This document shows, in pieces, positions 1 through 51,606 of a stretch of DNA of 64,000 bases. This DNA comes from Eledone cirrhosa (taxonomy: Eukaryota). The notes beneath the pieces were generated by a model that saw only the letters and a program-made list of their open reading frames with translations, was not told the origin of the DNA and searched no databases. The stretch's first letter is position 1. Every line of letters starts with the position of its first letter. Location: contig OZ024740.1 in assembly GCA_964016885.1 (NCBI GenBank), positions 214,520,001 through 214,584,000 of the forward strand, given 5' to 3'. Position numbers and translations under genes: made by a program.

Positions 1-2592
1 GCGCTCCCTCTCAGTCTTCGCTTGACCCAGGACTGCAGCTCCGTCAAGGAAACGAGCTGGGGAAATACGTGTCTAGCAAACGGCGACCACACCTGATCAC
101 CGTCGAGGAAGAGGTGGAGATGTCGTAGCCTGAGCGCGTGCCTGCGCATCATCAGCCACGGCATGCCCAGCCCTCCACGTAGCGGGTGTTGACAACAGAT
201 GGACCGCCTGACCATCGGAGCGCGTCCCTTCCACAAAAAGCGAAAGCGCAAACGCTCCAGCGCAGTCAGGCGAGGCTTAGGACAAGGCACCACGGTCAGG
301 CGGTAGCAGATGACAGACGCGATGTACGCGTTAGCCACCTCCGCTGTTGGACGGCATGGACCTGCCTCTCCAGGTGCCGAGCTGCAGGCCCACTGACTTT
401 TCCTGGTTGATCATTGCTCCTGTCACCGCTTCGTATTCTCTTAGTGTAGTGCCGATCGCCTCGATGTGTTTGGCGTTCGACACCACTACGGTGACATCGT
501 CCGCATATGCTGACACGGATCTTCCGCATCCTAGTTCGCGCGGGACGCCCCTCAACGTCTCCAGTTTGTGCAGTAATGGCTCGAAAGTCAATACGTACAA
601 GAGGGACGAGAGGGGACATCCTTGGCGGACCGAGAGCATGATGTTGAACGGTTCCGACAGGTGACCGTTCACTCTCACCACAGAGCAGATGTCGCTGTGC
701 ATGGCAGCGATCCAGCCTCTGAAGACGGGCCCAAAGCCAGCCGCCCTCAGGACTGCCGCTAGGTAACGATGGTCGACCCTATCGAAAGCTTTCGACTGAT
801 CTAAATTGATCAAGGACCCACCCGTGCCTGGTTCCCTAGCTACCCTCTCTACGATGTATCGCATGAGGTGGAGGTTGTTGTGGATGGATCTGTCGGGAAT
901 GGCGCACGTCTGCGCCTCTCTCACCAGACCACCAACGACAAGCGCAAACCTCTTTGCTAGCACCTTGGCCAAAATCTTTAACTCTGTGTTTAGCAGAGTT
1001 ATGGGCCTAAAATTATCTATGTTATCCCCCTTGTTCGGATCCTTTCTGAGCAGCGCCACAGCTATTCGGCTCACAGAGCTGGGAATTCTCCCGTTCTGTT
1101 GCCAGTTGCAGTAGACATCCGCCAAGAGGCCACCGAACAAGTCTGGCATCTGTACGTAAAGTTCATAGGGCAGACCATCCAAACCAGGCGATTTACCCCT
1201 TGTGCAGCTAGTCATTGCCTCCCGTACTTCAGCGGCTGTTATCGGCTTTTCGAAACACCCCGCCTCAGTGGCCGAGAGCCGCGGCAGACCGTCGAGGTAG
1301 ACACTAAAGTCCATCCTTCGATCCGGTCCGCCGCTGCCCCCGAACAACTGAGCGAAGTGTCGCTGAAAAGCTTCACACATTTGCCCGGGATCGAGTAACA
1401 TGCGCCCGTAGTGGTCCACCAAAGACCGGATCGTGGCTTTGTTGCCACGACGCGCCTCCGCCACTCGGGCCCATTGAACGGCTTTCGTCCCCTCGTGTCT
1501 GAGAGCACGCACCCTAGCTCTGACAACGCAGCCTTCCTGCTTTGCATTGAAGAATTGGTCAAGGGCCAATTTCGCCGCAAGTACGTCGGTAGCGATGCCT
1601 TTGCTAAGCGCCTCGTCTAATTTTCTATCTAATTCTCCCTCTGCTCTATTTTTCTCTATTGCTAAAGCCTTACTAAACCTAATGGAGTCTATTCTAATTG
1701 ATCTTTTCAGAGCAAACCACCACTTGTTGTTGACGATGGCCCCCGTCAACGCCCGCTTAACTAGTTCGCTAATCCGGTCTCTGTAGGCCTTGCGCGCTGG
1801 TAAGGACGCGTTTAGCTTCCAGTAGCCGGGTCCTCGTCTATGAAGCCTATCTAAGTCAAGCACACAGATCACGAATTTGTGGTCCGTGTAGCTGACTATC
1901 TTGAATTGTGGACAGCCTATGCTAGACCTATCTATTTCCCTACAAAATACTCTATCTAGATATGATCTGGATGACCCTATGCGATTTGTCCAAGTCCACA
2001 TTGGCACATTTGGGAAATCCAATCGGTACCTGTCAGACAGTTCAAAACGCCTGAGTAGGTTGGTGAGGTTCTTGCACTCTCCTCCCCTATCCGCTAATCC
2101 CACACAGTCCCAGCTTGCATCTAAGATCCCGTTCCAGTCGCCCACTAACACTAAAGAGCGGGACGTTCTAAGAAAGGTCTCCAGACGCCGGAAGAAATCA
2201 GGCCGCCTTGCTCCTGTCGGGGCATAGACGGCCACTAGCCTGAAAGCTTTCCCGTCTCCGCTGGTCACGTCCAGCACCACCAACTTACCTTCTGGGTCCA
2301 GGAAGATGGCCCGTATGGCGAGATCCAAACCTCTCCGAAAAAGCACAGCAACTCCTTCCCCCGATCCAGGACGGCTGGGAGATGCGTACACATCGTGGCC
2401 GCCGAAGATCGGTGCGAAGGCCCGTGCTTCGGAGATTCTGGTCTCGCTGAAGGCCACTACATCTATCTTTAGTGACCTGAGGTCGTTGAGCAGGTGGCCC
2501 TGCTTCCATGACGACCCCAAGCCACGCGCATTTATGCTGCCTATTCTTAGTGAGGTCATGTTGAATGGAGTGGAAAAGATGGGAAAGACCAC
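1..2592 (-). pseudogene. Tx1 ORF2 (APE endonuclease + reverse transcriptase), frameshifted near 340
   Basis: SINARG, VGDWN, SYLDR, TDH (APE); KSPGLDG, FRPITLLN, DQSKAFDRV, VRQGCPLS, YADD (RT); ATG at 2559. Confidence 0.92.
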
Positions 2593-4533
2593 TTACCTTA
2601 CTTCTCGTAGAGGAAGGATGGTTTCTCCATCCTTTTCACTGCTTGGAGACTCCTCCGGAAGGATGTCCTTATAAATCCTCCTGGAGAGTGCTTGTCGGAA
2701 GTCTCCGATGTCTTTGGGGAATTTTTGTTTTAGTGTCGTGTGCGTTTTCTGTGTGATGCGAGTGATTTGTATGTGTGGAGGTGGTGTGAACTTTTGGGTT
2801 GTTGTATAGTCCTTTTCTGTGATGCTGTTATTGTGTTGCATGTAGTGTAATAATTGGTTGTTGTTCAAATTTAATGCTGTGTAATGTGTATCGTTTTGGT
2901 TGTTTTGTTTTGTTTGCGTTTGTTGTGGGTTTGTTTCTGTTACGCTCTTTGGTGACTTTTGTGGTGTTGGTGATGGTGGTGTTGGGGTTAATGATGGCGA
3001 TGGTGTTGGTGTTTGTGGTGATGGGGTTGGTGATGCTGGTGTGGATGGTGGCATATCTGTCCTATCTTTTTTGTTTGATAGTTTATTTGTTTCCCTCTGT
3101 ATTTTGTTTTTTGGGGGGGAGGGAAGAGAATTTTTTCTTTTTTGGTTTCTTTTTTTCTTTTTTCCTGATACCGTTTCCCACTCCTCGTCGTCACAATCTG
3201 TCTCCAGCTGTGATAGGCCGGAGAGTGGAAAGTCCTCCACAGGCGTTGGTTTTGGTTGTGGCGTGGTGGATGGCGTAGGCGCTGGTGCTAGTTCTGGCGC
3301 GTCGGATGGTGGTGGTGTTGGTTTTGCTACTGTTGCTGGGGTTGTTGCTGTTACAGTTGCTTCTGTTGTTGCTGTTACAGTTGTTGCTGCTATTTCTGCT
3401 GCTGGTGGTGATGATGGTTGAGTCACTGGGGTGGGTAAGAGAGGTGGCCTCAACCTTTTAGCCTGAGGACAGAAAGCCCTTAGGTGGGTTCCTTCACCAT
3501 AAACGACACACCTAGGCCTTCTGCCTTCGACGATTACGGTGAGGTGGCTGCCGTCAGTGAGGTCTATTACCTCTGGGATCTCCTCAATGCTTTTTTGGTC
3601 CGCTTGGATCAGGAGCTCCATCCCAGATCCGAACCATTTCTCCTGCTTTTCTTTCGCTATTTCGATTATCTTGGTGTTGGGTTCGATGCCGGCGAGGACG
3701 GCAGCTATTAGCCAGGGCATTTCGATGGCCGGTGGAACGTGGGTCACGCTGATCTTCACGAGTCTCTGGCCACAATAGCTTGGGACGAGTGTGAAGTCGT
3801 CACTTCTTAATGGGGCCATGGAGTGTTCTCTGGCCTCCTGTGGTGTTTCAAAGAACACGTCCACGGTTCCATATTTCTGCCCACGTCTGAGGTATGTTTT
3901 TTGCCCACACATGTCCCAAAGCTTTTTGGATTTGGGACTTGGATGCCCGTTCCACTCGGCGCGATTTTATGCTAATCCTTTGATAAGATACGGTGAATAG
4001 GCGCCGATGCTCCATTTTATTAGTTGGGGGGTGAGGCTGACCCTGTACCCATCTTTCTTTACCATTATTTTGGCTTCTTCTAATTCCTCCTGAGTTACCT
4101 GGAATGCTTCGCACTGTTTTGCTACTCTGGCAAAACTCAGGGTGGTTTTCTTAATTTCATTGTTGCTGTTGGTGTTATCGTTATTTTTGTTATTGTTAAT
4201 TTTAGTTTCAGTTGTGGTGGTGGTGGCGTCAGTGGTGTTCGGTGTGGAAGAGTTCATTTTGGTTGAATTCATTTTGATATCACGAGTTAATTTATTTTTT
4301 TCTTTTGTTTCTGTTGTCGCTGTGTTGGTGGTGGGGGTGGCGGCTTTAACACCTGCAGTCATTGGTAATGGCGGGAAATGAATGTCTGCCTGAGACAAAT
4401 TTAAAATATTGCTACTGCTTATATTTTTAGTGTTGGCAAACGTAGTAATATTTACAATGGTGGTGTAGGTGTGAGGTGTTAGTTTGTGAGTTTGTGAGGA
4501 AGGTGTGACACTGAGTCGTCCATGATTTTTCAA
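2593..4533 (-). pseudogene. Tx1 ORF1 (gag-like nucleic-acid-binding protein), frameshift near 3960
   Basis: ORFs 3967-4533 and 2593-3912; degenerate knuckle CVVYGEGTHLRAFC; W..V..KKKKR basic motif; SFARVAK motif matches TFAQTVK of copy 2. Confidence 0.8.
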
Positions 4534-4736: not shown

Positions 4737-8475
<3,739 letters not shown>

Positions 8476-8477
8476 TA

Positions 8478-11400
8478 ATTTGTTTATGGGTGTTCGTATA
8501 CAGCGTGGTGATAATGCCACACAAGGGCCAAGTGGGATGGCGGATCCACAGATGGCTATGTAAACATACATTCGCCAATCCTCGATAAGAGTGTTTAAAT
8601 ATCGAACATAAACAGTTCGAATAACGGTGAAATGGAGACTAGAACGTCATGTGACAGACTCTCACCCAACAGGTGCCCCCTGGCTCAGCAGCAGGAACCT
8701 GACTGTCAACCAAATACTGCTGATGTTGGAGGAAGGAGAAGAAGGAAAGGGGCCAGAACCAACTGGACGAAAGAATTGAATAGAACTGTTATGCAATGCT
8801 ACCTGAAAAGTAACCCCAAGGAGAGGGGCTACAGGAGACGGATGCATAACATCTGGAACGAGATTGGTTTATTTAAATTAGATGAACAAAAATTGGCCAG
8901 GCAGGCTCGGGTAATAAGAACTAATGGGTGGATAAGCGAGCTGGAACTGGAGGAACTGAGCAGAGAGAATGGCTTGGAGATGGCGGGTGTAGTATGCCAG
9001 ACAAGCGAGCCGGTGGGAAATGAAGGTGAGGAGGTCCTGAGAACGGAGGAACCACCCGAAGCAGACAATGATCTGAGTACTGAGATAAATAATACCTGGA
9101 ACAGAGATACGGCCACTGAGGAGATGAATGCTGACGGGCTAGGACAAGATTCGGTTGACATCCTAAATTTAGTGGTAGATGAATTGAACAATGATAGTGG
9201 GAGACCTATGAACCTAAGATTTGTAGACAGGAAAAAGTTAAAAGAAACAACAGCTAAGGTAAACAAAGTCATCCCATACCTTGAGGCGAGGAGCCTTCAC
9301 CAGTGCAACAATATCCTCAGAGCAACAGCAAATACGGTGAGGAAACTACTTGGTATAAAAGCGAGAGGAAACAACAGACAAGAAAGAGCAGAGCCGTGGT
9401 GGAAGAAGCGACTGAGTGGGCAAATCGGGGTAATGAGAAATGACATAGGAAAGCTTGAGTCACTACTGAATGGGACACTAAAAAACATAGGCACTAAAAA
9501 TAGACTGGAAATAAAATACAAAACTAGGAGTAAAAAGCTAAATATTATCATAGAGGAATTGAAGCAACGCATTGTAGCAAAGAGTGCAAAAATCAGGCGA
9601 TACGAGAACAGAGTCAGTCAGTATAAACAGAACCGCATGTTCGACAACAACCAGAAGATGCTGTTTGGACAGCTTGAGGGCAAAGAAAGAGGCAGCGACT
9701 TGATCCCTGGGGCGGAGCAAACTAAAACATTCTGGAGAGGAATATGGGAGCAGGATGTTAGACACAATGCCCAGGCAGGGTGGATTGAGACAGTACAGAG
9801 GGAGATCGGTGAGCAGGCACAGCAACAGACTGATTTGAGTATCACAGTTGAAACTCTTAAGGGGCAAGCCAAAAAACTAACCAACTGGAAATCACCAGGC
9901 CCAGATGGTGTGCAGGGGTATTGGATTAAACATCTAACATCCCTCCACCCGAAGCTGACGGCCATGTTCAATGACTGCTTGGTGTCGGGTGAGGTGCCAG
10001 AGTGGTTGACAAAAGGTACCACAGTTCTGATAATGAAAGACCGAATCAAGGGTAATGATGCTACCAACTATAGACCTATCACATGTCTGCCCGTAATGTG
10101 GAAACTGTTGACGAGCATTGTGTCTGAGGAAATCTACCATCACCTCCACACAAACAACTTGTTACCGGACGAACAGAAAGGATGCCGAAAGAAGTCACGT
10201 GGTACAAAGGACCAGTTGCTTGTTGATAGGATGGTAATGGGGAATTGCAGGAGGATGATAACATCAGACAGTTGCTAGGCAGGAGTATGGGGTCCTGGGA
10301 GACAGAGTTGACATCAACTGGAGTATCCTTGGGAAGCGTGAAGATCAAGAGAGGTATCTTCCAGGGAGATAGCCTGTCCCCTCTGTTGTTTGTCCTTGCC
10401 CTGATGCCCTTGACCATTATGCTGCGAAAAGTGAGAGCAGGATACAAGTTGGGAAGGGGAGAGCTTACCATCAATCACCTCCTCTTCATGGACGATCTTA
10501 AGCTCTTCGGGAAAAGTGAGAAGGAGTTGGATGTGCTTGTTGACACTGTCCGTATTTTCAGCAGTGATATATGTATGCAGTTTGGCATTGGTAAATGTGG
10601 AGTCATTGTGATGAAGAGGGGTAGGTTGAGCAGAAGTAACGGGATCCAGATACCAACAGGTGAGATGATAAAGGAAATTGACTCTGAGGAAGGATACAAG
10701 TATTTGGGCGTTCTGGAGGCTGATGGCATAAAGAACAAAAAAATGAAGGAATTGTTAAGAACTGAATACATTCGGAGAGTAAGGAGCGTATTGAAGTCAC
10801 ATCTGAACAGCAGAAATGCCATAAGCGCAGTAAATTCCCGAGCTGTGTCTATTATTAGGTACAGTGCGGGAATTCTGAGATGGAATGTTGCCGAACAGAA
10901 AGAAATGGATAGGAAGACTAGGAAGCTATTGACTATCTACAACATGTTCCACAAGAGGAGTGATGTCGATAGACTCTACCTAAGGAGATCTGAGGGTGGA
11001 AGAGGTCTTATCAGCATAGAGGACTGTGTTCAGATGGAGAAAAACCACCTATACAAATACGTGACCTATAGTAAGGAGCCAATGCTCAGAACTGTACTGA
11101 AGGAGGGGACAGTAGGCCAGGGGATGTCCAGGGAGGAAATAACATCAAGGAGGAAGAGCAGCCTTAAGGGAAAACCACTTCATAGTACCTTCTTTGAGAA
11201 AACTGAATTTAGAGATCCACAGACATGGAACTGGTTGAGAAGAGGAGACCTCAAAAAGGCTACAGAAGGAATGCTAATGGCTGCGCTGGAGCAGGCCCTC
11301 AAAACGAAGTGGTTGAAGCACCATATCTACAAGGAGGAGGCTAGCCCACTGTGCAGGATCTGTGGAGAGAGAGAGGAGACTGTGGCTCACATTGTGTCCG

Positions 11401-11998
11401 AGTGTAAACACCTAGCCCAGACCCACTATAAGGGCTGGAGACACGATGTGATGGGCAGGGTGATCCACTGGCACCTGTGCAAAGTAAACAATCTACCACA
11501 TTCTGAGAAATGGTATGAGCATAGGCCAGAGGCGGTGATGGAGAACAATCAGGTGAAGGTGCTGTGGGATTTTAGGATACAGACGGACAAAAAACTGGAA
11601 CACAATAGACCTGACCTGGTGGTTGTGGACAAAGAAAAAAGATCGTGCCTGATTGTTGATGTGGCCTGCCCGTTCGACACGAGAGTGCAAGAGAAGGAGA
11701 GGGAGAAAATTAACCGATACCAGGACCTAAAGTGGGAGGTGAAAAGGATTTGGAACTGCCATGAAGTCAAAGTGATCCCGATTGTCATAGGCGCACTGGG
11801 GACTATCTCCAAAAGTTTCCAGGGATGGTTAAAGAAAATCGGCCCCTTCACGCTTTTTGGAACGCTTCAAAAGGCATGCTTGCTTGGAACAGGAAGAACC
11901 CTCCGATACGTCCTGAATATCTGAGGCTGCAGGTAGTGGCTTGATATTCAATCCAACGGACTTTCCAGTTAACCAACATCAATGACTGAGATTCAAGG
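8478..11998 (+). mobile_element. R4/Dong-clade LINE copy B, tandem to copy A, same family
   Basis: ORFs 8632-10278 and 10245-11924 colinear with copy A; about 100-nt deletion in RT; (TAA)n at 8429-8472 and 12000-12057. Confidence 0.93.
8632..11924 (+). pseudogene. RT-RLE polyprotein of R4/Dong copy B, one frameshifting deletion at about 10256
   Basis: FMDD; CCHC; PD..D..K endonuclease RPDLVVVD-DVACPFD-EKINRYQDL. Confidence 0.9.
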
Positions 11999-12010
11999 AA
12001 TAACAATAAC

Positions 12011-12057
<47 letters not shown>

Positions 12058-13019
12058 GGGAAGAAGACGCACGAGGTGGTAGAAGGTCATGAAATCGCTC
12101 CCGTAAGTTTTTGATTTTTAACATATTTAAATCAATTGTGAAATAACAATTCTTAGTACAAATGTTGCATAAACCACCGAATGAAGTCCCATAAAATTTC
12201 GGATCCATATTATATTGTTATATCGCTCAAATATTCAATTTTGTATTATATATTTTGTATTCAAAAAAAGAAAATGGTTATAAATGGAAGAAAACACCCC
12301 CTGTCTACACTATATAGAACAGTCAAATAACAGCAATTTCACCAACACCAGAAACTTGATACACCACCTATCCCATCACACTAAATATAACAGCCAGATA
12401 ACGGCAATTTCACCACCACCACTATCAATACCGGCATGATAATAATAATTACTATTATTATTGTCTCAAATTTTAACAAAATTTTTAATTCCAATTTTAC
12501 GGGAATATGTCAACACAATATATATTAAACATACGAACACAAACTCATAGATACTACATATCACAAAACCCAGTAACCACAACGCCACCGCCGCCACCAC
12601 CCCATCCATCATCTTGCTACCACTATCCCATCGCCGCCGCCACCACTCCTTCATTGCTACCACCACTATTCCCCTGTTAACTTGAGAAAGAAAGGGGAAG
12701 GTGGCGGTATCACTAGACAAGGGAGAGGCTAGCAAAAGATATAAATTGATTGACTTAGTGACCTGGCGACCGGCCAAACGTCAACATCAACAACTATGGG
12801 ACTGCTGGCTCACCCCTTCCTCACCAACAATATAAAAAGCCCCGGCACCACCACCGACATAGCCAACAACAATAACAGGCAACTACAGCAAAAAGTATAT
12901 TATATTATTGTAATGCACTGGGTGATTGCTGGCCTTGTGCCTGGAGTGGAGACAATTATTAATAATTTCATTCTTAAGCCATGCAATCCTCACATTAAGG
13001 AACCACTCATGATAATAAC

Positions 13020-16000
13020 AATTTAAAAAAAACAACAAAAAGAAAACCCCGTGACCAAGAAATACCGGGATGGCGGCCGGCGGGGAATAGCCGTGTCTCT
13101 AGGGGAGAACGACCCCTCTAGTCTTGGTTGACACTCGTTCTAGAAGTGGTAACACGAAATGATTACCCCTTGGCGGATAAGGATAAAACGCGACAAAATA
13201 AAGTAAATGTCTAATGATAAAATCTCATACCGGATCGGCCGTCACCCGGGTAAAAAAGGGCCGTGTCCCTCAGAGAGGAACCAGACTGGGGTCGAAAAAT
13301 CAGCTAATGGTTCAAACCTTCCCATCACTTCGGAGCTGGAGACCTCCCATAACCGGAATACTCCTACTGTTGGCCCTCCATGCTCACCACCAAGAAATCC
13401 AAAGAAAAAGAGAGAAAAATGGTCAAGGGAAGATAATAAAGAAGTCCTTGAGGCTTTCTACACTGCCATGTACTACCCATCAAATACATCGAATACAGAA
13501 CAGACATATATCAACTGGAAAAAGAAACATCCCGAAAACAGAGGCTATATTGACAGTAAAAAACTAGCCAATATACGAAGAAATATTGTAAGAAAAAAGT
13601 TACTAACTGATATAGAAATTTATCAGATCAAGCTATTAGCACAAAGTCAGCGAAGGGAAAATGAAACATGTGTCAGTGAAAACGAGGTAAACTGTAACAC
13701 TTCGAACCCCAGGGTTGGGGCGGAATCACTGGCAACAGAACAAATTAAAGAAAGGATCGAAAAAGTGGAGGGAGTGCATGCTCAGGATGAAACTCCAAAT
13801 GAAAATAATGAGATCGTAAATGATAAAGAAATGAATGAGAATGAACTTGCCAACTTGAAGGATGAAATTATGATCGAATGGATGAAAATGAAAGAATCTG
13901 ACATGGGGCAACGAGACACCCTCCCTAAGATCCAGAACTCCAAACAGAACCAAAAGATAATACACAAGACTAACACAATTCTCAAAAACATTATCATCAC
14001 AAACAAACTAAACATGACTGATTTAAATCATCTCTACTATGCATCGGCGAAAGTCACCACTCACTTATGTGGAGTTAAGATGAAAAAACAAAGGAATTCC
14101 CACAAGAAATCTACTTGGCAAGAGAACATCAATCGCCAAATAAACCTTCTCCGATCTGACATAGAAATTTTAACAAACTATAAAGTAGGTGAACATGTTA
14201 AACAAACTAAACTTAGTAAATTGAAGAGAAAGTACAGTATAAAATCAACAAGTGACATAGACATGCTGATAGAAATAATCAAGCAAAAAGTGTAGGCCAA
14301 AGCTGCTCGTATAAGGCGCTTTGAAAAACGATCTAGATTCTATAAGGACAATAATATGTTCAAAAACAACCAAAGAAACTTCTACAGAAAAATTGGTAAG
14401 TCAACAATAACTGCTAAATCAATACCACCCAAGGAGGAAGTGCAAGAATTCTGGGAAAAGATCTGGGCCGAAGAAAAAGTTCATAACATACATGCCCCAT
14501 GGATAGACAGACAAATGAAAGATACAGCTCACCTTGAGGAACAAATATGGGAAAATATAACAGTTGAACAGTTGCGCTTGGCTCTAAGAAAAACCGGCAA
14601 ATGAAAATCCCCAGGAAAAGACAAAATACAAAATTTTTGGATAAATGCCTTCACAGAGTCTCATGAGCTGTTAGCCCAACTTTACAATGAAATAATTAAG
14701 GAGCCAGAAAAGATACCATCATGGCTAGTTAACGGCATTACATTCCTGCTTCCGAAGAATGATGAGACAAACAATCCCAAAAATTACAGACCGATAACTT
14801 GCTTGACCACAATGTATAAAATTTTAACATCAGTCCTAACTGAATACACATATGACCACCTGATAACAAATGATCTATTTCCCATTGAGCAGAAAGGGTG
14901 TACACGAGGCTCATATGGCTGTAAGGATCACCTTTTGGTTAACAAAATGATACTGGAAGATTGTCATAATAGACACAAAAATCTATCGATTGCTTGGATA
15001 GATTATAAAAAAGCATTCGATAGTTTGCCACACAGTTGGATTGAAAAATGTTTAGAGATTTTCAAAATATCCCCCGTTGTCAGGAGGTTTTTGTCATTCA
15101 GTATGAAGACATGGAAAACGACACTCCTTTTGAATAGTGAAACAAAATCACTGGAAGCTGGAGAAGTTAATATTAATTGTGGAATTTTTCAGGGTGACTC
15201 TTTATCACCGCTTTTATTCTGCATCGCACTTATACCATTAAGTAAAATGCTCAATGAAACAAAACATGGATATAAAGTCTATGACAAAACCATTAATCAC
15301 TTGTTCTACATGGATGACCTGAAACTATTTGCAAAAAATGATGAACAATTGCAAGGGCTATTATCCACTGTGGAGCAGTTCAGTGATGACATTAAAATGG
15401 AGTTTGGACTAGATAAATGCGCCAAAGCAACGTTCACCAGAGGAAAGCTGCTGAAGAGTTCAGGCATTAATCTTGATCGGGGGAACGTGATAAGGGAACT
15501 TGATCAAGAAAAACTTACAAATATCTAGGTGTTTGTGAAGGAGACGGAATCAAGCACTCGACAATGAGGGAAAGGATAAGGAAGGAATGTTACCGCAGAG
15601 TAAGAGCAATCTTAAGAACGGAATTGAATGCAAGGAATAGGATCGATGCCATAAACACGCTTGCCATACCAATAGTAACCTACAGTTACAATGTCATCAA
15701 CTGGTCAAGCACAGAGATCCGTAGGCTCGATACAAAAATTCGAAAATTCTTAACCATGCACAGAATGCATCACCCTAAGGTAGATATAGATAGAATATAT
15801 CTCCCTAGGAAAGAAGGAGGGCGTGGGTTAATCCAGTTAGACATTGCGTTGAAAACTGAAACAATTGGATTATCTACATATCTAAGGGAATCACATGATC
15901 GGAAAATCAAACTCGTTTTGAAACACGAAAGCATCAAAAGATCATATTCCATTACAAAAGATGCACAAAGATACAGTAATGGACTACAAATTTCAGAAGT

Positions 16001-17000
16001 CCCATTTACTGCTGAAATGGAAAACACAGAAAAAGCAAAGCAGGTAAAAGTAACTGCAAAGAAAGAACTGCTACAGAAACTGGCTAAGAAATGGCAAGAA
16101 AAGCCTCTGTATGGAAAATATCCAGAGCGAGCTAACAATCCTGATGTTGACAAAACTTTAACCCATCAGTGGTTGGCATCCTCTGGACTGAAATCGGAGA
16201 CTGAAGGACTGATTATATCAGCACAAGATCAGTGTCTGCCAACAAAAAATTACCAAGCCAACATAATAAAAAATGGATGCAGCCCATTATGCCGTGTATG
16301 CAAAAAACAACCAGAGACCATTGACCATATAATTTCAATGTGCAATCCTATAGCTCCAACCGAATACCTAAACAGGCATGACAGAGCAGCACAATACATG
16401 CATTGGATAATGTGTAAGCATTTTGACCTGCCCCATCAAAAGAATTGGTGGGAGCATCAACCACCTCCCATACTTGAAAAAGATCACATCTCAATCTTGT
16501 GGAACTTTAGCATCCAAACAGACCGAAAAATAGATGCAAATAGACCTGATATAATATTGAAGGACTTTAAAAAGAGGGTATGCCTGCTAATTGATATGTC
16601 TGTTCCAATAGACAAGAATGTATCTATAAAAACATTTGAAAAATTGAGCAAGTATAAGGACCTGGAGATAGAAATTGGAAAAATGTGGAAATTGAGAACT
16701 AAAACAATACCAGTGGTTGTAGGCGCTCTGGGAATGATACCTAAGGGGTCTAATGATTACTTATCGCAAATCCCAGGAAACCCGCGTATAGGAGAAATAC
16801 AAAAGATAGTACTAATGGGAACTGCCCATATACTAAGGAAGATTCTGTCAATATAAGTACATTACATGTCTAAACACTAAAGATGCATGTGTGTGTATGT
16901 ATGTTCTTTCCTGAACATGGCGGACCTTGTTGTCTCTTGAGGTCACTGGTTGTGACTTGGTGATAACTCGTATGAACATAAAGCAAGATAAATGCAACTG
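13020..17000 (+). mobile_element. R4/Dong-clade LINE copy C, second family, near full-length
   Basis: ORF 13207-16856 with stops at 14293 and 14602 and a frameshift near 15515; YMDD, CRVC..H..C, RHD, RPDII; ends in (TAA)n 17001-17021. Confidence 0.92.
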
Positions 17001-31744: not shown

Positions 31745-32548
31745 CCGAACTCTCCCTTCTCTATGTCTGTCACAAAATACTTTCTTTTAACCCCCCCTCT
31801 CTGTATCTACTAAAACCAAACTCTACCCCTCTCTATATCTACTACGACACCACTTCTCATATCCCAGTCTCTATATCTAAAACTAATACACTCTCTCACT
31901 CTCTATAAATATCTATACTTATCTCTCCCAATCCCCCTCTGTATATTAATCACCCCTAAACTCTCACCCTCTCTATATCTACTACACGGCGCTCTCCCAT
32001 TATTACTCTCTGTAAGGGCGGTGGATTGGCAGTATCGGTAGAGGGTCGGATGCCATGCTTTGCAGCAAAGAGTGACGGCCCTTTATGATCTGAGTTCAAA
32101 TCCCGCTGAGGTTAACTTTGCCTTTCATCCTTACGGGGTCGATAACATAAAGTACCAGTAATGCACTGGTTAATTGCTGGCCTTGTGCCAAAAGTAGAAA
32201 CAATTATTACTCTCTGTATATTTACAACCACATAATTTCCCCCCTCTCTATATCTACTACTCGGAACTCTCTTCCAATCCCCCTCTCTATATCAATAAAC
32301 ATCAAGCTCTTCCCATTTCTATATCTAATTACCGCCAAAATATCCCCCTCTCTATATCTACAATATAACACACTCTCATTCTGTCTCACTCTATCTATCA
32401 CTACCGAACTCTCCCCCTCTCTATATCGAACTACACGGCCTATCTCTATCAATCCTCTCCCTCTATTCATACCACCAAACTCTCTCCCTCCCTACATCAA
32501 CTATACAACATACTTGCCCAATCCACCTCTCTATATCAATTACCACTT
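31745..32548. repeat. Degenerate ~31-bp CTCTCTATATC satellite, continues at 38260-38770
   Basis: Recurrent CCCTCTCTATATC(AAT/TAC) on both sides of Tx1 copy 2. Confidence 0.75.
32016..32208 (+). mobile_element. Full-length tRNA-derived SINE
   Basis: A-box TGGCAGTATCGG, B-box GAGTTCAAATCC, Nin-like core, ATT tail. Confidence 0.88.
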
Positions 32549-32746
32549 GATATAGACGTGAATTACTTCGCTCCGGATTTTTACGGATTATTGTCAAAAA
32601 AACTGTGAGTTCATTGATCAATTTAATAGCATTGTTTAGTTTAACCCCTTGCCTGGGCCGTCAGACGTTGAGTCAACTAATTTTCGCCCCTTTCTGGGGC
32701 GAAATTTTCATTTTCATCTCAAAACTGTGTAGACTTGGTATCAACA

Positions 32747-34538
32747 ATGGATGCCATTTCCACCTCGCACACTGTTGTGAGTGCCACGCCCGCTAAGAAA
32801 AGTGGTGGAGGGAAGGTAGGAGTACAAAGCTTGCAGCCTTCCCCCCTCGCATTATCGAAAAACGTTGAAAATATTGAAACTACGAAACCAAACCCGGTAA
32901 ATAATACCAGCACCAACAACAAGAACAATGACAATAACACCACAACCAACAACTGCAACAATAGCAACACCAAGGAAAACATGAACAATATTACCAACAG
33001 TGACAGCAACAAAAAAGACAGCACCAAAACAACATTCGCACAGACTGTAAAATAAAACGAACTATACACGCCAATAGACATAACAAATGCTAAACAACTA
33101 TTACAAGACGCAAAACAATTCGTGACTTTTGGCGAAAACGGTGCTTTTAGCATCAATTCTCCACAGGAATTACGTAGAGAGGCTGTCCTGAAAACTGTGG
33201 TTTTCAGGACAATATCGAACGAAACAAGAAAACCAGCTCAATTATCACAAAATGAAATTGAGCTGGTTCTAAAAGATGCAATGAAGGACTTAACCTTCAT
33301 ACAAAAAGGTAAACTGTTTGGTAGAATTTCGGTGCTAATGAACAACCAGTCAACAGCTCAAAAGAACTCGGTATCACCCATTGTGTCCCCCCGCTTCACC
33401 TTTTTCCCCACATACAGGGGAAAAAGGACACAAAGAATAAAAATAATGAGTATCACACCAAATGTAAATATTTGGTGGATACTATGTGGAATCATTGACT
33501 TTGACGAAGACAAGATAATTTCAATAGGAAAGTCCTCCGGAGGTGTATTTGGTGGGACCAGCGTAGAAGTTCTGGTGCAAATGAGCCCAGAACGAATAGC
33601 GAATATCCCACAACGCGTGCTTCTGGACGGGCTAACTTATATAAACATTTCAGTGGAGAGAAGGCGGCCGTCATGTTACCACTGCTTAAGCAGGGGTCAC
33701 CTGAGGGCTGCCTGTCCTCAATTAACGAGTAAAAAAAAAAGGCTCTTCTGCCAACCCCGAACACAACAACACAACCACCACCACCACCACAACAACAACA
33801 ACCACAACAACACGGAAAAATAACAACACAAAACACTGTTCCACCCAACCCCTCCCCACCTAAAACAAATACAAAAGCAACCACAACAAAACCCCAAAAT
33901 ATACCCCTCCCCAACAACACGGAAGAGGACTCCGTATCAACGTCACCCAGTGACGACGAGGGAGAACCCTTTCAACAGGTGAAAAGGAAAAAAAAAGGCA
34001 CCACATTAACAAAAATGCCACAAACACACAACCACTAGCACAAACAGAACAAACATCACAAATAAAAAAAAACACCCCTCCCCAAAACATAACACATACT
34101 GCAAAACGCAAACACGCACAAGAACAACAAACAAAAACAAACACAACACAACAAAAACTCTATACATACATTAACAAGAACAATAAAACGTTGATGAAAG
34201 CGATAGAAAATAACCCTTCGGTGGAAACCGAAGGGATCACTTTCACCTACGCAGCGAACAAACCGCACCTAATGATGATTAGGGTCCCAACGGAAAATTA
34301 TGTAACTTTGAAAAAGAACCATCCAATGCATGTGGGGACCAACTGCACCAAACCACTTAACCACGTCCTATTGAGATATTTCCCCACCCCCACACCAGAC
34401 ACCCACACCCCACCAAACGCCCTAATCCCACCACACACTGATGTCCTCACCCCACCACAAACCACCACCCCACCAAACAACCCTTCCAACACCCCCATGA
34501 AAATTGTGCAGCCTGGTCCCCAGGAGACGAAGAGGTAA
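32747..34538 (+). pseudogene. Tx1 ORF1 with CCHC zinc knuckle; stop at 33053 and later frameshifts
   Basis: CYHCLSRGHLRAAC; Asn/Thr- and Pro-rich linkers as in copy 1. Confidence 0.8.
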
Positions 34539-34573
34539 GTAATTTCCTTCCTCTTCCTTTTTAACTCTTCAGC

Positions 34574-37500
34574 ACCAACAAGGCCAATATAAGAGTTGGA
34601 TGTGTGAATGCACGCGGCTTGGGGATGTCCTGTAAACAGGGCAAACTCTTAAATGACCTCAGGTCGCACAGAGTGGATGTAATGGTTATTTGCGAGTCCA
34701 GGATCAGCAGCGGCGAGCGCCAACTGGCCCCCATCTTCGACGACTTTGAGATCGACGCATCTCTCTGTCAGCCGAGGGGTGAGGGTGGGGTTGTCGTTCT
34801 GCTGCGAAAGTACCTGGGTCTTGCCACACAGAAGGTACACCTGGACCCGGAGGGTCGACTGGTGGTTTTAGACGTCGGCAGTGGTGAAGGTGGAGCTTTC
34901 AGGCTGGTGGCAGCGTATGCCCCATCTGGGACACCGCGACCGGACTTCTTCCGACGCCTGGAGAATTTCCTGGGAACGTCTCGCTCCTTCCTTTTAGTGG
35001 GGGACTGGAATGGTATCCTGGATGCACGTTGGGACTATGTAGGGGCATGTCCCGATAGAGGGGGGTGTAACAGCCTCAAACGATTAATCGGCCGATTTGA
35101 TCTGGCCGATAGATATCGACTAGATTTTCCGACTGTGCCACGGTGGACGTGGAGTAATCGCAGCGGAACATCTAGGTCGTACCTAGATAGGTTCCTAGTT
35201 AGAAATAAGGATAGGGACATATTAAGCTGTCCACGAATGTTCATGGTTGACTATTCGGATCACAAGTTGGTGACCGGAGTGGTCAACCTTGATAGAACTC
35301 ATAGACAGGGACCCGGTTACTGGAAACTAAACTTGTCTTTACCGACAAACAAAGCTTACAATAAGCGGATTAGCACACTAGTTAAGCAGCATTTGACGGG
35401 GGCAATTGTCAACAACAGGTGGTGGGGCTCTCTCAAGAGAGAAATTAGAATAGAATCGATAGGTTTTAGTCGACAATTAGCATCAGATAGGAATAGAACT
35501 GAAAGGGAATTAACAAATTGAGGAGAAGAGGCGATTAGGAGTGGCAACGTGGCCGGCGTGCTGGCGTCAAGAACGGCCCTAGACCAGTTCTTTGATGCGA
35601 AGCACGAGGGCTGCATTGTCAGGAGTAAAATACGTGCTCTGGGTAACGAGGGAGCCAAAGCTGTTAGCTGGGCCCGAGTGACAGAGGCAAAAAGTGGAAA
35701 CAAGTCCACGATTCGGTCTTTGAAGGACCAGGATGGACGCGTGATCCTTGAACCTAAGCGGATGAGTGCGGCCTTTTAACGGCGCTTTGCACAACTGTTC
35801 GGGAGGGGCGGCGGGCCGGGTGGGGCCATGGATTTCGGTCCATACCTCGACGGTCTGGCGCGGCTCTCGGAAGGGGAGGCGAAGTCCTACGAGGGGCCGA
35901 TTTCAGCCGCTGAAATAGGGGAAGCGTTGAGCCAATGCGGCAAACGCAAATCTCCGGGTCTCGATGGTCTACTATACGAACTTTATGTAGCGATGCCGGG
36001 CTTGTTCTCCGGTCTCCTGGAGGCGGTCTACTGCAACAGGCAACAGAACGGGAGAATTCCCAGTTCTGTGACCAAGGGCGTAGTCACGCTGGTGAGGAAG
36101 GACGAGAACAAGGGGGATGACATAGATAACTTCAGGCCCATAACTCTGCTAAACACAGAGTTAAAGATTTTGGCCAAGGTGTTAGCGAAGAGGTTGGCGC
36201 TTGTCGTCGGGAACCTGGTGGGAGAAGCGCAGACATGCGCAATCTCGTCCAGGTCCATACACGACAACCTCCACCTCATGCGATACATCGTAGAGAGGGT
36301 AGGGAACGAACCCGGCTTTGGTGGGGCCCTGATCAACTTGGATGAATCTAAGGCGTTCGATAGGGTTGACCATCGGTACCTGGATGCGGTGCTCGCGGCG
36401 GCAGGCTTCGGACCCGTTTTCAGGGACTGGATTGCTACAATGCACAACAGCAACACCTGCTCGAGGGTCAAGGTGAACGGCTACCTCTCGGAGCCGTTCC
36501 AAATCACGCGATCCATTCGACAGGGATGCCCTCTCTCCTCCCTCCTGTATGTGCTGGCTCTCGAGCCACTACTGCGGAAGCTGGAGCTGATGCAGGGCAT
36601 CCCCTTGGAACCGGGATTGCGGAAAGCGGTGTCGGCCTACGCCGATGACGTGACAGTAATGGTGTCGTGCGCCTCGGAAATCGGGCAGATCAGCACCTTA
36701 CTGGAGGAATATGAAAGGTTCACAGGAGCCAAGCTGAACCGGGACAAGTCCGTCGGTTTGCAACTCGGGACGTGGAGGGGCAAAACGATGCCCTCCGACG
36801 GCATCGTCGGACGCTGGACGGAGGGACCGGTGAAGCTGCTCGGGGTCTGGTTCGGACCGGACCTCCAGGTGGAGAAAAACTGGGACGAGGTAACGGGCAA
36901 GGTCTTTGCACTCGCCCAGAAGTGGGTCGAGTGCAAACTATCCCTGAAAGGTCGAACGGAGGTGGCGAACGCTTATATAGCGTCCGTCATCTACTACCGC
37001 TTGACCGTCGTGCCTTGCCCAGAGAAAACACTCGCCAAAATGAAGCGCGCGCTCTTCCGATTTCTTTGGAAGAAGCGGGCTCCTTTGGTGAGAAGATCCA
37101 TCTGCTGTCAACACCCTTCGAACGGAGGGCTGGGGATGCCGTGGCTGACGATGCGTATACACGCATTAAGGCTACGGCACCTCCAGGTATTCCTCACCGG
37201 TCAGCCGGTGTGGGCCCTGTTTGTGAGGCGAGCCTTTCCGAGACTCGTCTCACTCACCGAGCTGCAATCCTGGGTCAAGCAAAGACCGAGAAAAGTGGGC
37301 GACTGGCACATTGAATGTGCCCAGGCGCTCACGGCCCTCTGGCAAGCGGATCCAGCAATCAGTGGAGACTCAACCTCAACATTCTATAGAGGGTTGGTGC
37401 GCAGTAAGTGCAACGACGCTCTCGGAGAGGCTCTGGGCATGGAGGAAGACGAGCTGGCCAGTTTGTTCGGTAGGACGTTTGGCCCGGGACCGATGGACAA

Positions 37501-38020
37501 CTTCCAAAAGTCCCTGGCTTGGCAATGTTACCGAGGAGCTCTACCCGTTCGGGACAAGCTCTACAGACACGGGCGCCCGGGTAGGGACCCCTCGAAGAAG
37601 ATCTGTCAGAGATGCGTGCGTGACGAGGAAACCGTCGCACACGCATTCGTACACTGCCCGGGCGTTGCTGACCTGTGGGGCTATGTAGAACGACTACTGT
37701 CGCGGGTGGCACCAATCCGGTTGACCACCGAGAACATTGTCACGATCAAACCGCCTCCCCCTTTCAAAAACGAAGGAGAGGCGGTTTTCCTCTGTGTGAT
37801 AGCCATGGCGAAATAAGTTGTATGGTGGACAAGGTTGAAAGGGCTGAGGTCAGACACCTTTCTCTCCGGCCAACAACTGGTCTTTTTTTTCAAGCACCAC
37901 TTTAGAAGAAGGATCAGAATGGAGAGAGAGGTGCTCTACCCCAGCAAGTTTTATGAAAGATGGGTGAAAGTAGCGAGAATGGCCCGAGTGAATGGGCCTT
38001 CTCTCTATATCAGCCTGTAG
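34574..38020 (+). pseudogene. Tx1 ORF2 (APE-RT-zinc finger); stops at 35519, 35777, 37814
   Basis: CVNARG, VGDWN, SDH, FRPITLLN, RQGCPLS, YADD, CQRC..ET..H...C. Confidence 0.92.
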
Positions 38021-39324
38021 GTGATAGAGGAGAAGAATGAGAAGAGGAAGGAAGTACCCGCTCTTTGTGCTCCTGAAGAGGAGGGTTGCACATTTTTTCG
38101 GGGGTGTGTGCGACCCATGTCAACGCCCCTCCCTATTGAGGACATCGATTGTTAAATTTAATTTGTTATATGTTTTTTACACGTCTTTTTAAATGTATGT
38201 AAACTCCCCCCTTTGTATTTGTCCCAATCTTTGATGCCCTGGTGGCAAATAAATAGAAATATATATCTACTGCACAACACTCTCCCTCGTTCCCTCTCAC
38301 TCTATCCATCACTACCAAACTCTCCCGTTTCGATATCAATTATCACCAAACTATCACCCTCTTTATATATATACCATACAGCACTCTTTCCAAATCTCCC
38401 TCTCTATATCAATTAACACCAAACTCCCCCCTTTCTGTATCTACTACACGGAACTATTTTCTAATTCCCCTCTATATATCAATTAGCATCAAACTCTCTC
38501 CCTTTCTATGTCTACTAAACAGAACTCTCTTCCAATCCCCCTCTCTATATCAATTAACGCTAAACTCTCTCCCTCTCTATATCTACAACATAGAACTAAC
38601 TCTCTTCCAGTACCCTTTTCTATATCAATAAACATCAATCTCTCCCCCTCTCTATATCTAATATACAACATACTCTCCCAACCTTCCTCTCTATATCAAT
38701 TATTACCAAAATCTTCCCCTCTCTATATCTATATCTATATCTATATCTTTCTCTCCTCTCTCTACACAACATGTACATAAATTGTAGCACATATACAAAT
38801 AGATGTGTGTTTTGGTAGTTTTGGGAGAAAAATATAATTATTGAGGAGAGGGGTGGGGGGTCCCCTGGCCACCCCAGTTCCACCGCCCATGTGTTGGCGA
38901 AGTCATTAGTACCGTTCACTGGTTCTCTCGTGGTATATGTGGTTTAGGTGAAGGGGGTCAGTGCTTCGACAACTGCACGTCCAACAACTTTACTTTATAT
39001 GTGTTTGTAATATCTATATATGGTAGCTGTTGATAACATGTTCATGAGATATATATTTTCGTACAGCTGTAGCTCATTTAGTGCTGCTTCTGTTAACCAG
39101 ATTCTCGACCTAATGATTTCTGATAATGTAAAGAAATTGACTTGTGATAGTAGCTATGACACAAACATTATATAACATTTCATTCCTTACTTTATATACC
39201 ATGCTGTCTCCACCAAAGACACAGTGACAAACGAAATAGGGACACATTTTGACACTGTGTTAGTATAAGTCACTGTGTTTGTGGAATACTAGCAGTCGCC
39301 CCTACATATCACTTTCCGCTCTCT

Positions 39325-48765: not shown

Positions 48766-49738
48766 AAGGCGTGTGGCTGAGTGGTTAGAGAATTGGATTC
48801 ACAATCTTGAGATTGTGAGTTCGATTCCTGGACTGGTCGATGCGTTATGTCCTTGAGCAAGACACTTTATTTCACGTTGCTCCTTCTACCTGGAGTTGCC
48901 ACCTATAGATAGTATTAGCAACTGGAATGACCGACGAAAACACTATTTCCTCGGTCAGATTTGACGAAAGTCGATCGATATATATATATATATATATATA
49001 AATGAAGTATTTCCATAGGAAAGGTAAAGTAAGAGAGAGTGCTCTCTGTAGGCTATATAGCTTTTTAGTTATGTAATAAACAACATAAGATAATTACTTC
49101 GTTTACCAAAGGTTTCACGAAGTTTACCAAAGGTAGATGGCGTAGGACAGAACACAGGAGAGGCACAAAAAACAAAGAAAAGAACCCCCAGTCACTGACC
49201 TCTTGGTCACAGAATGTGTGACGAAAGAACTTTGACAATATATAAACAACCATCTGGTTGTGGAACCAACCAACCAACCGGAAATTTATAAATTCCTAAA
49301 TTTATAAATTTATTATAATAAATTGAAGTGAAATAAGCTGGTGCGTGTGTTTCTTATTGGCAACATGACCCTCCCAAAGTATAACAATATCGGTTTCAAC
49401 ACACGTTTTCAGATAAAGAATCTTGCTTAACAAATTCAGAAACGAAATATATATATATATATATACGATATTAATAAATGGAAACTATATTTATAAAACT
49501 ATATTTATTTCATTATACATATTTCAGGGATACCACATTAAACCATGGTATGCCTTCATCAGACAAAATACAATATATAACAGTTTTACAAATAGGTTTG
49601 ACGTACCCTTTAAAATACAACCATTACTTTTGGAGGCTGTCTGGATAGTGATTTGTTTATATAATAAGTCATAGTGTTAAGCACAATTATAAAAAGACGG
49701 AGAGAAAGAAAAAAGACGGAGAGAGAGAAAAGAACAAA

Positions 49739-51606
49739 GACAAAACTAACAACCTTTATGGAGTACAAAAGGACATGTATAACGACCTTATATTGAAAGA
49801 ACTAAGGAAAAAGTACAAGGTAGCAAGTAAGGATGAACTAGAAAAAATGAATACAGATGCATCTTGTATAATGCATGAATTAGACATTGAGAATAAAACA
49901 CAACCCTTCATGCCTAGGAAACCCAAGATCAATATGAAGGATCACAAAAGAAACTTTGAAAATGATTTACCAGTCAGATTAATTGCACCATCTAAATCTG
50001 ACCTGGGCAAACTTAGCAAAAATATTCTAGACAGGGTAATACAACAAATTATAAACTTACCTAATTTATCTTACTTAAAATTATGGAAAGGGACTAGTGA
50101 GGTTATTGATTGGTTTAAAGAAATTAAATATAACTGTAATAATAAGTTTATTCAGCTGAATATTGCTAACTACTATTCATCTATCACTCCTAATCTACTG
50201 AATAAGGCACTAAATTACGCATTTAAACATACTGACCTAACTAGCAATGAAATGCACATTATATTATCGGCAAGGAAAACATTGATAGAATTTAATAACC
50301 AACTCTGGACTAGGGCAGATAGAAATAATAATTTCGACATAACTATGGGATCATCAGACTCAGCTCAGGTAACGGACCTTAATTTATAATTAATTCGCTA
50401 CATAGAAAAATACCAGGTGTAACCGGAGGATTATATCGTGATGACATGCTTTTACTTATAGAAGATAATAGCTGTGAACTAAATAGAAAAAGAAAACAAA
50501 TTATACAAATTTTTAATTACCTTAATCTAAAAATAGAAATAGAGAATAACCATAGAATAGTCAATTTTCTTGATGTAACACTAAATCTCAACACATGTCT
50601 TCATTATCCATTTCACAAACTAAATGAGAACTTGAATTATGTCAACTTTAACTCTAATCACTCCAGATCTGTTAAAAATACTATAGTGAACTCTGTTCAA
50701 GAACGAATTTCAAGAATTTCATCTAATAAAAATATATTTGATGAAAAAGCGCAGTATTACAACGAAGCATTAGCTAGAGCTGGATATAGAAATAAAATTA
50801 AATACATCGATAATAATAATAAGCAAACTAACCAAAATAATAACAATTTCAATTACGGTAACAACTTTAATAACTATAATAGAAAACATTACAATAATTC
50901 CAAAAGCCGAAAAAGAAATAGAACTAGAAATATATTATGGTTTGCTCCCCCGTTCTCACTAAATATTAAAACCCCTATTGCTAAACTATTCTTTAAAGCT
51001 CTTGACACACGCTTCCCTAGAACACATAAATATCACTCAATTTTTAATAGACACACTATAAAATTAACTTACTCGTCCACCAAAAATTTAGCACAAAATA
51101 TTAATAGAATTAATAATAGGAATTTAAAACCTAACCAAAATACCAATAATAACCCAAACAATATTCAATTAAATAACTGTAACTGTAGAAATAAATCTAA
51201 CTATCCGTTAAGTAACAACTGCTTAGCTAAAAATGTAGTGTACAATTGTAATGTTAAAACTAATTTAAATTCATTTAACTATGTTGGTGCCACCTCTACA
51301 GAATTTAAATTTCGCTTCAATAATCATAAGAATTCTTTCACAGATCCAAACAAAAAATCTTCAACTTCGCTATCTAGCCTACTATGGGACCTAAATCGAG
51401 ATAATATTAAGTATTCGTTGAGTTGGAATATTATTTCATAAGCTACTCCATTTAATTCCTCTTCAGAAAATTGTGATCTTTGTATTGAAGAAATATTCTT
51501 TATATTAAAGTTCAAAAATTCCCTTAATCTGAGGAACAATTTATTCAGTTGCTGCAGACATAGATTGAACTCAACGTTTAAATATAAATATAAATTTAAA
51601 ATGTAG
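49739..51606 (+). pseudogene. PLE reverse transcriptase + GIY-YIG endonuclease
   Basis: DKTNNLY, PVRLI, ITMGS, GLYRDD, NFLDVTL; CNCR..PL..C, VVY..YVG, CDLC, LN.R, CRH; frameshift about 50390, stop 51439. Confidence 0.9.

Follow-up and report, generated by a model that had tools for sequence, protein, structure and literature searches.

A splice-donor motif conserved at the ORF1 end and a predicted helix around ORF2 in a clade of L1-Tx1-type LINEs from the octopod Eledone cirrhosa

LINEs of one clade in the genome of Eledone cirrhosa carry a 5' splice-site motif at the end of ORF1, and the pyrimidine-rich spacer that begins with it is complementary to the purine-rich start of the 3'UTR, giving a predicted helix, here called the clamp, that encloses the whole of ORF2. 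The motif exceeds chance. It is probably a selected trait of the clade, because it is conserved in all 12 subfamilies and rare among distant relatives. The reading put forward here, tentatively and at slightly less than even confidence, is that the motif serves as a U1 site and that this site and the clamp may regulate the RNA in its full-length, unspliced form, without ORF2 being cut out as a matter of routine.

The window, that is, the whole stretch of 64,000 nucleotides analysed, contains one full-length member of the clade and part of a second, copy 1 (Table 1). The full-length element sits within a degenerate 30-40 nt CTCTCTATATC tandem repeat (31760-32550 and 38260-38750), and its 40 best genome matches have 97-100% identity. 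This copy is a dead element: in addition to the broken ORF1, the ORF2 start is mutated to AAG (34580-82; ATG in 29 of 29 other copies) and ORF2 has in-frame stops at 35519, 35777 and 37814. Intact ORF1s of about 640 codons, in which the same CX2CX4HX4C knuckle was read, occur in copies L199, L213 and L205; ORF1 has no Pfam match. Elsewhere in the window, three RT-bearing elements at 5151-16856 look R4/Dong-like and an ORF pair at 49652-51441 looks Penelope-like, both judged by eye from translations.

Table 1. Positions of the LINE features in the window
Feature	Positions	Strand	Remarks
Full-length decayed L1-Tx1-type LINE, about 5.7 kb, subfamily A1	32550..38259	+	ends approximate
5'UTR donor-like GTGAGT, then U-rich run	32605..32610	+	by eye
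ORF1 with CX2CX4HX4C knuckle, ending QETKR*	32747..34538	+	broken in window copy
Clamp 5' arm: donor and pyrimidine-rich ORF1-ORF2 spacer	34529..34577	+	predicted
5' splice-site/U1-complementary motif GAG/GTAAGT overlapping ORF1 stop	34532..34540	+	
ORF2, 1146 codons: AP endonuclease, reverse transcriptase, zf-RVT	34580..38020	+	PF03372, PF00078, PF13966
Alternative partner of the spacer 3' half in whole-element folds	37818..37842	+	window copy and subfamily C only; not in the other seven folds
Candidate acceptor: pyrimidine run, CAG 38011-13, TAG 38018-20 (ORF2 stop)	37999..38021	+	
Clamp 3' arm: purine-rich 3'UTR start, its end pairing on or around the donor	38019..38067	+	predicted
AATAAA poly(A) signal of the LINE	38248..38253	+	
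Copy 1, subfamily B1: AAG/GTAAGT over ORF1 stop, first intron base 2596	2555..2599	-	

The elements combine an AP endonuclease, a reverse transcriptase and a C-terminal zinc domain in ORF2 with a separate CCHC ORF1 and a target-sequence preference, all of which are L1/Tx1 features. The best solved-structure match of ORF2 is human L1 ORF2p (E 5e-54, against 3e-22 for R2). Most of 30 A1 copies lie in the degenerate CTCTCTATATC repeat, and all 30 of their 3' flanks begin with a TATATAT-like stretch, most going on in the same repeat; copies of B, D, E and F run into (ATT)n, and those of C, G, H, A2 and A3 mostly into (TATC)n-like runs. Copies often stand in tandem arrays, about 6 kb apart. Relatives and one Argonauta protein fall inside the clade in a quick-method tree, Argonauta also being the source of the nearest named protein, and the L1/Tx1 assignment rests on structure and target preference. 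As described in the accessible text of PMC4494074, two ORFs, the same domains and target preference are shared by the Tx1-clade LINEs (Tx1, Kibi, Koshi, crocodilian Tx1 and the L1-Tx1 of Octopus vulgaris). In O. vulgaris, 13 recently active L1-Tx1 families are reported in the part consulted of PMC13282606.

A degenerate pattern for the ORF2 start gave 9,110 matches in the genome, and its reversed control gave 9 + 10. From 40 fetched loci and the window copy, 12 subfamilies were defined under our own labels (A1-A3, B1, B2, C, D, E, F1, F2, G, H); they have 60-96% ORF2 DNA identity and together form one clade. B1 and B2, with 51 of the first 100 matches to the pattern, make up roughly half of the copies. 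The distant relatives comprise 80 metagenome elements, 52 with the ORF2 start in view, and 26 of those with an ORF1 of at least 200 codons.

The motif was scored against the donor consensus MAG/GTRAGT. In the window copy it reads AAG AG/GTAAGT with the GT at 34535-36, overlapping the ORF1 TAA at 34536-38, just as the sequence-only reading had described it. At least 8 of the 9 consensus positions match at the ORF1 end in 12 of 12 subfamily representatives, and sites this good occur elsewhere only 0-2 times per element of about 5.8 kb. Positions -1, +1, +2 and +6 are invariant in all 12, and flanking positions agree in 4-10. A donor of at least 7/9 lies upstream of 125 of 142 distinct ORF2 starts; the other 17 are point or deletion variants, most of them fetched because they were mutated. 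Among the 26 distant relatives, the ORF1 stop carries a 9/9 donor in one and an 8/9 donor in one. The element L265, a distant relative whose ORF2 end could not be placed, has a perfect AAG/GTAAGT over its ORF1 stop (about 1146-1154). A further 8-9/9 donor was noticed in the endonuclease coding region, about 310 nt past the junction donor, in D, B1, F2 and E (L188, L216, L190, L186).

It could be argued that none of this has a function, and that the donor was simply inherited next to a stop codon while the helix follows from base composition. The 12 subfamilies are indeed one clade, and TAA or TGA supplies three donor bases. The motif, however, survives shifts of phase, being in phase 2 over the stop in seven subfamilies and in phase 1 just before it in four. 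It also survives the loss of the stop in H, which reads through (its frame was set by peptide likeness), and ORF1 ends that are unalignable. Swaps among TAA, TGA and TAG at the ORF1 end all retain the donor, and the relatives mostly have neither donor nor helix. Together with the pairing results below, these points make an account without function improbable.

The clamp is predicted as a helix of 26-41 bp between the spacer, including the donor, and the first 50 nt or so from the ORF2 stop. Its arms pair at -44.7 kcal/mol in the window copy and at -44.2 kcal/mol in copy 1, whose spacer is without AG. In 11 of 12 subfamilies the helix reaches z <= -2.4 against dinucleotide shuffles; H fails at z -1.5. 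The window just after the stop is the best partner of the spacer along the element in nine of 12. When whole elements (3.8-3.9 kb) were folded, the helix formed across 3.4 kb in seven of nine copies, those of H and A3 being the exceptions.

Strands rich in pyrimidines and in purines pair easily, and arms from different subfamilies still average -30 kcal/mol, as the account without function would have it. Arms of the same subfamily, however, average -38.8 against -30.1 kcal/mol for non-own pairs, and 0 of 100,000 permutations were as good, although this count overstates significance because the subfamilies are related. The helix ends are also registered: in nine of 12 subfamilies one lies at the third base of the ORF2 stop and the other 3 nt ahead of the AUG. 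The pair at donor +3 is A-U in B, C, D and F2 and G-C in A2. The helix takes up only 4-8 of the 9 donor bases and therefore does not explain the donor consensus, which persists where the helix pairs it poorly.

In distant relatives with intact ORF2, z lies above -2 in 25 of 27, the exceptions being L254 (-8.1) and L255 (-2.5). L254 is a distant L1-like metagenome element in which bases before the ORF2 ATG pair with bases after the stop (441-500 with 4236-4290), with 13 perfect pairs at its z of -8.1; this predicted helix is possibly an independent clamp. Subfamily H (L196, L197, L218-L220) combines an ORF1 end of the A type with a 22-nt extension and a short spacer, and its ORF1 overlaps the ORF2 start. 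Its spacer pairs better with B-type 3'UTRs (-40) than with its own (-24), and H looks like a recombinant at the junction.

In the proposed mechanism, the spacer would pair with the 3'UTR start and ORF2 would become one large loop. U1 snRNP would bind the donor, which has a U-rich run downstream, during transcription of ORF2, and would guard the nascent RNA. When the 3'UTR has been made, its arm would zip along the spacer, cover the donor and displace U1, and full-length RNA would escape splicing or retention. In the cytoplasm the fold would set the poly(A) signal about 180 nt, not 3,700 nt, from the ORF1 stop (the path is 3,711 nt, and about 183 nt when folded). Because the poly(A) signal would be brought near the ORF1 stop, the folded RNA may act as an uncut ORF1-only message, with efficient termination and protection from nonsense-mediated decay; ribosomes would have to open the helix for the ORF2 AUG, which would keep ORF2p low. 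The motif, its conservation, the complementarity of the arms and their fit to the own-subfamily partner were seen directly, and from them U1 binding, its displacement and the effects on translation and decay are inferred.

This regulation of unspliced RNA is consistent with the finding of no spliced retrocopies in the screened classes. It is also consistent with the donor-like motifs of six subfamilies, GTRAGT or GTAGGT with a U-rich run behind it, which lie no more than about 100 nt from the 5' end. They were seen by eye in the A1 window copy and in A3, G, H, C and F1, the copies read besides the window copy being L199, L191, L219, L221 and L205. Counting against it, no conserved poly(A) signal was found as a target of U1 suppression: in 21 copies, ORF2 holds no shared AATAAA or ATTAAA. 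In ORF1, AATAAA occurs 0-4 times per 1.5 kb at unshared places. H and A3 do not form the fold, and the ORF2 end has features that suit real splicing.

At that end, the sequence-only reading had proposed an acceptor that, with the donor, brackets ORF2 like a spliceosomal intron. All its parts are present: the pyrimidine-rich run, the CAG, and the ORF2 stop TAG followed by G. Joining in silico gives ETKR* at the TAG and ETKSL* at the CAG, as had been claimed. The joined GTGATAG holds for the window copy, whose second stop TAG is private to it; the same site reads GTGAGAG in 27, ATGAGAG in one and GTGACAG in one of 29 other copies, and the difference T38025G is also seen in sequencing runs. The window acceptor ranks 3 of 100 YAG sites by pyrimidine content and exceeds chance only modestly. 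One check suggested in that reading was whether related families have an acceptor at the ORF2 stop. The stop is TAG in 10 of 12 subfamilies and TAA in B1 and B2, the two that are commonest. In copy 1 the ORF2 stop, which lies about 700 bases outside the window on the side of position 1, is TAA and supplies no AG acceptor.

According to the rival account, an AG that either belongs to the ORF2 stop or lies shortly ahead of it is the acceptor for the donor. Splicing would yield an ORF1-only mRNA, and through the clamp some of the RNA would stay unspliced; the spliced RNA would lack the 5' arm and would not be copied back. The strong, apparently selected donor suits it. In the 10 subfamilies with TAG, the YAG at the ORF2 stop ranks 1-11 among 52-126 YAG sites, with a pyrimidine content of 0.61-0.78. 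A join at the first AG of the final 25 nt stops ORF1 after at most four codons in 11 of 12, and the phase-1 subfamilies D, F1 and F2, which have no AG before the stop, give V*, GW* and G*. This match of phase is post hoc, however, with a Fisher p of about 0.05 on nine related subfamilies, of which fewer are independent. Over the last 20 codons of ORF2, identity at four-fold sites is 0.76, compared with a mean of 0.60, but this falls below the 15 best of 223 windows (>=0.80). B1 and B2 would need GAG or a 3'UTR AG. The G or GT after the ORF2 stop has another explanation as well, because it pairs with CAAC ahead of the ORF2 start. Two further candidates were set aside: synonymous conservation is not raised at the other conserved AGs (34997, 37389), and B and E have a strong acceptor-like site in the 3'UTR that the remaining subfamilies lack in the 3'UTR sequence listed. 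Excision of ORF2 is thus a possible but rather doubtful reading. Of the proposed bracketing, the donor half is upheld, being kept across subfamilies and phases and once without a stop, and the acceptor half is unproven.

Spliced copies were sought in the genome. The junction in its window form (GTGATAG), which had been suggested as a check, gave 0 exact matches, and its family form gave 0 with at most one mismatch. The exact 16-mer of the ORF1 end occurs at 564 places. All 41 copies in which the next base is not G were read, and they show no join to the ORF2 end and no jump over the spacer. Another 233 copies with GT and then a base other than A were suspected of being spliced; the first 100 are all GTG, and 30 that were read belong to an older GTGAGT-type subfamily and are all unspliced (copies with G and then a base other than T lay outside the screen). 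Family B was screened twice, and the 16 distinct copies obtained are all unspliced, out of an estimated 3,000 or so with that exon end (9,110 x 51% x 10/16). Three matches of a family-D screen (L334-L336, contig C28) are a satellite of about 59 nt unrelated to the LINE. Copy L227 joins the B donor position to the interior of ORF2, through a 3-base microhomology and with no AG. In three sequencing runs of unrecorded kind, genomic-looking, no joint at the donor was seen among the joints displayed (15 of 311 and 15 of 19).

Intron-less copies of an ORF2-spanning intron were thus not found in the screened classes, even though the junction would lie only about 240 nt from the 3' end, which counts against excision of ORF2; such copies are not required if the spliced RNA is uncopied. 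LINE RNA shows cis-preference (PMC5860796, accessible part), and the absence of spliced retrocopies is for this reason a weaker negative. When ORF1 of a LINE ends in a stop of its own, ORF1p is already made in excess of ORF2p (PMC4091050, accessible part), and the gain from ORF1-only splicing would therefore be smaller than for copia. Both ideas could be combined, with the antisense arm as a splicing switch: with U1 on the donor, the ORF2-end acceptor and the 3'UTR arm would compete, the first leading to an uncopyable ORF1-only mRNA and the second to a copyable, clamped genomic RNA. This combination is doubtful, and we regard it as unlikely on balance.

An intron confined to the spacer, or an acceptor within it, is very improbable. 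The spacer could be a mini-intron, with 37-39 nt removed and ORF1 fused to ORF2, or an acceptor for the 5'UTR donor, giving an ORF2-only RNA. In A1 and A2 it has a branch-like TTTAAC and a top-ranked CAG (34570-72 in the window, inside the clamp 5' arm), and the join is in frame. The spacer ends in AG in only six of 12 subfamilies, however, being without it in B1, B2, C, D, G and H, and in A3 and E the reading frame is lost at the join. At 37-39 nt the spacer is far shorter than metazoan introns usually are. Such RNA would be copied in cis, yet 0 of the 41 copies with non-G after the ORF1 end show it, and ORF1 sequence is still present ahead of each of the 17 ORF2 starts, of 142, that have no good donor.

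The sequence-only reading took its precedents from LTR retrotransposons. Drosophila copia reportedly has a splicing system comparable to that of the Arabidopsis Ty1/copia element EVD. Contrary to that reading, EVD does not splice out pol: according to the accessible part of PMC5580714, its shGAG RNA arises by removal of a short intron with early termination and poly(A) addition, and U1 at the donor protects the full-length RNA. The octopod LINE resembles EVD in that its structural gene ends in a conserved U1 site. EVD and copia, in contrast, are LTR elements with a single gag-pol ORF and need splicing to create the Gag stop; the LINE has its own ORF1 stop and no shared ORF2 poly(A) signal, and splicing was unobserved. 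The EVD pairing of a short intron and a conserved early poly(A) site was not found in 21 copies searched for AATAAA/ATTAAA.

Human L1 likewise has splice sites inside a LINE, and its spliced RNAs leave genomic copies, the SpIREs, in 131 of 6,609 full-length L1s (PMC5860796, accessible part). These are, however, dead-end 5'UTR events that keep ORF2, whereas the Eledone site is conserved and no spliced copies were found. For the proposed fold, the nearest likeness is an engineered 26-nt fold-back that suppresses nonsense-mediated decay in a human-cell reporter (Eberle et al. 2008, PMC2689704, accessible part): there too, sequence after the stop pairs near the poly(A) signal and the tail comes close to the stop. 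The LINE clamp differs in being natural, 26-41 bp, predicted, and enclosing a second ORF. In SART1 and L1, ORF2 also starts soon after the ORF1 stop and is reached by termination-reinitiation, for which RNA structure downstream of the stop matters in SART1; this structure is local, and long-range 3'UTR pairing is not described in the accessible part of that paper (PMC5972666). A literature search outside subscription papers, Repbase notes and supplements found no Tx1 donor at the ORF1 end, no ORF1-only spliced LINE mRNA and no helix enclosing ORF2.

How a bicistronic LINE RNA balances ORF1 and ORF2, survives a post-stop stretch of 3.7 kb and avoids host splicing is only partly understood. The co-varying helix and the U1 site are two defined elements that can be altered and rescued in a reporter. 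If the splicing variant were true, a copia-like subgenomic RNA would exist in a non-LTR element. With more than 9,000 copies of the clade that have an ORF2 start, thousands of strong donors are scattered through the Eledone genome and could capture host transcripts.
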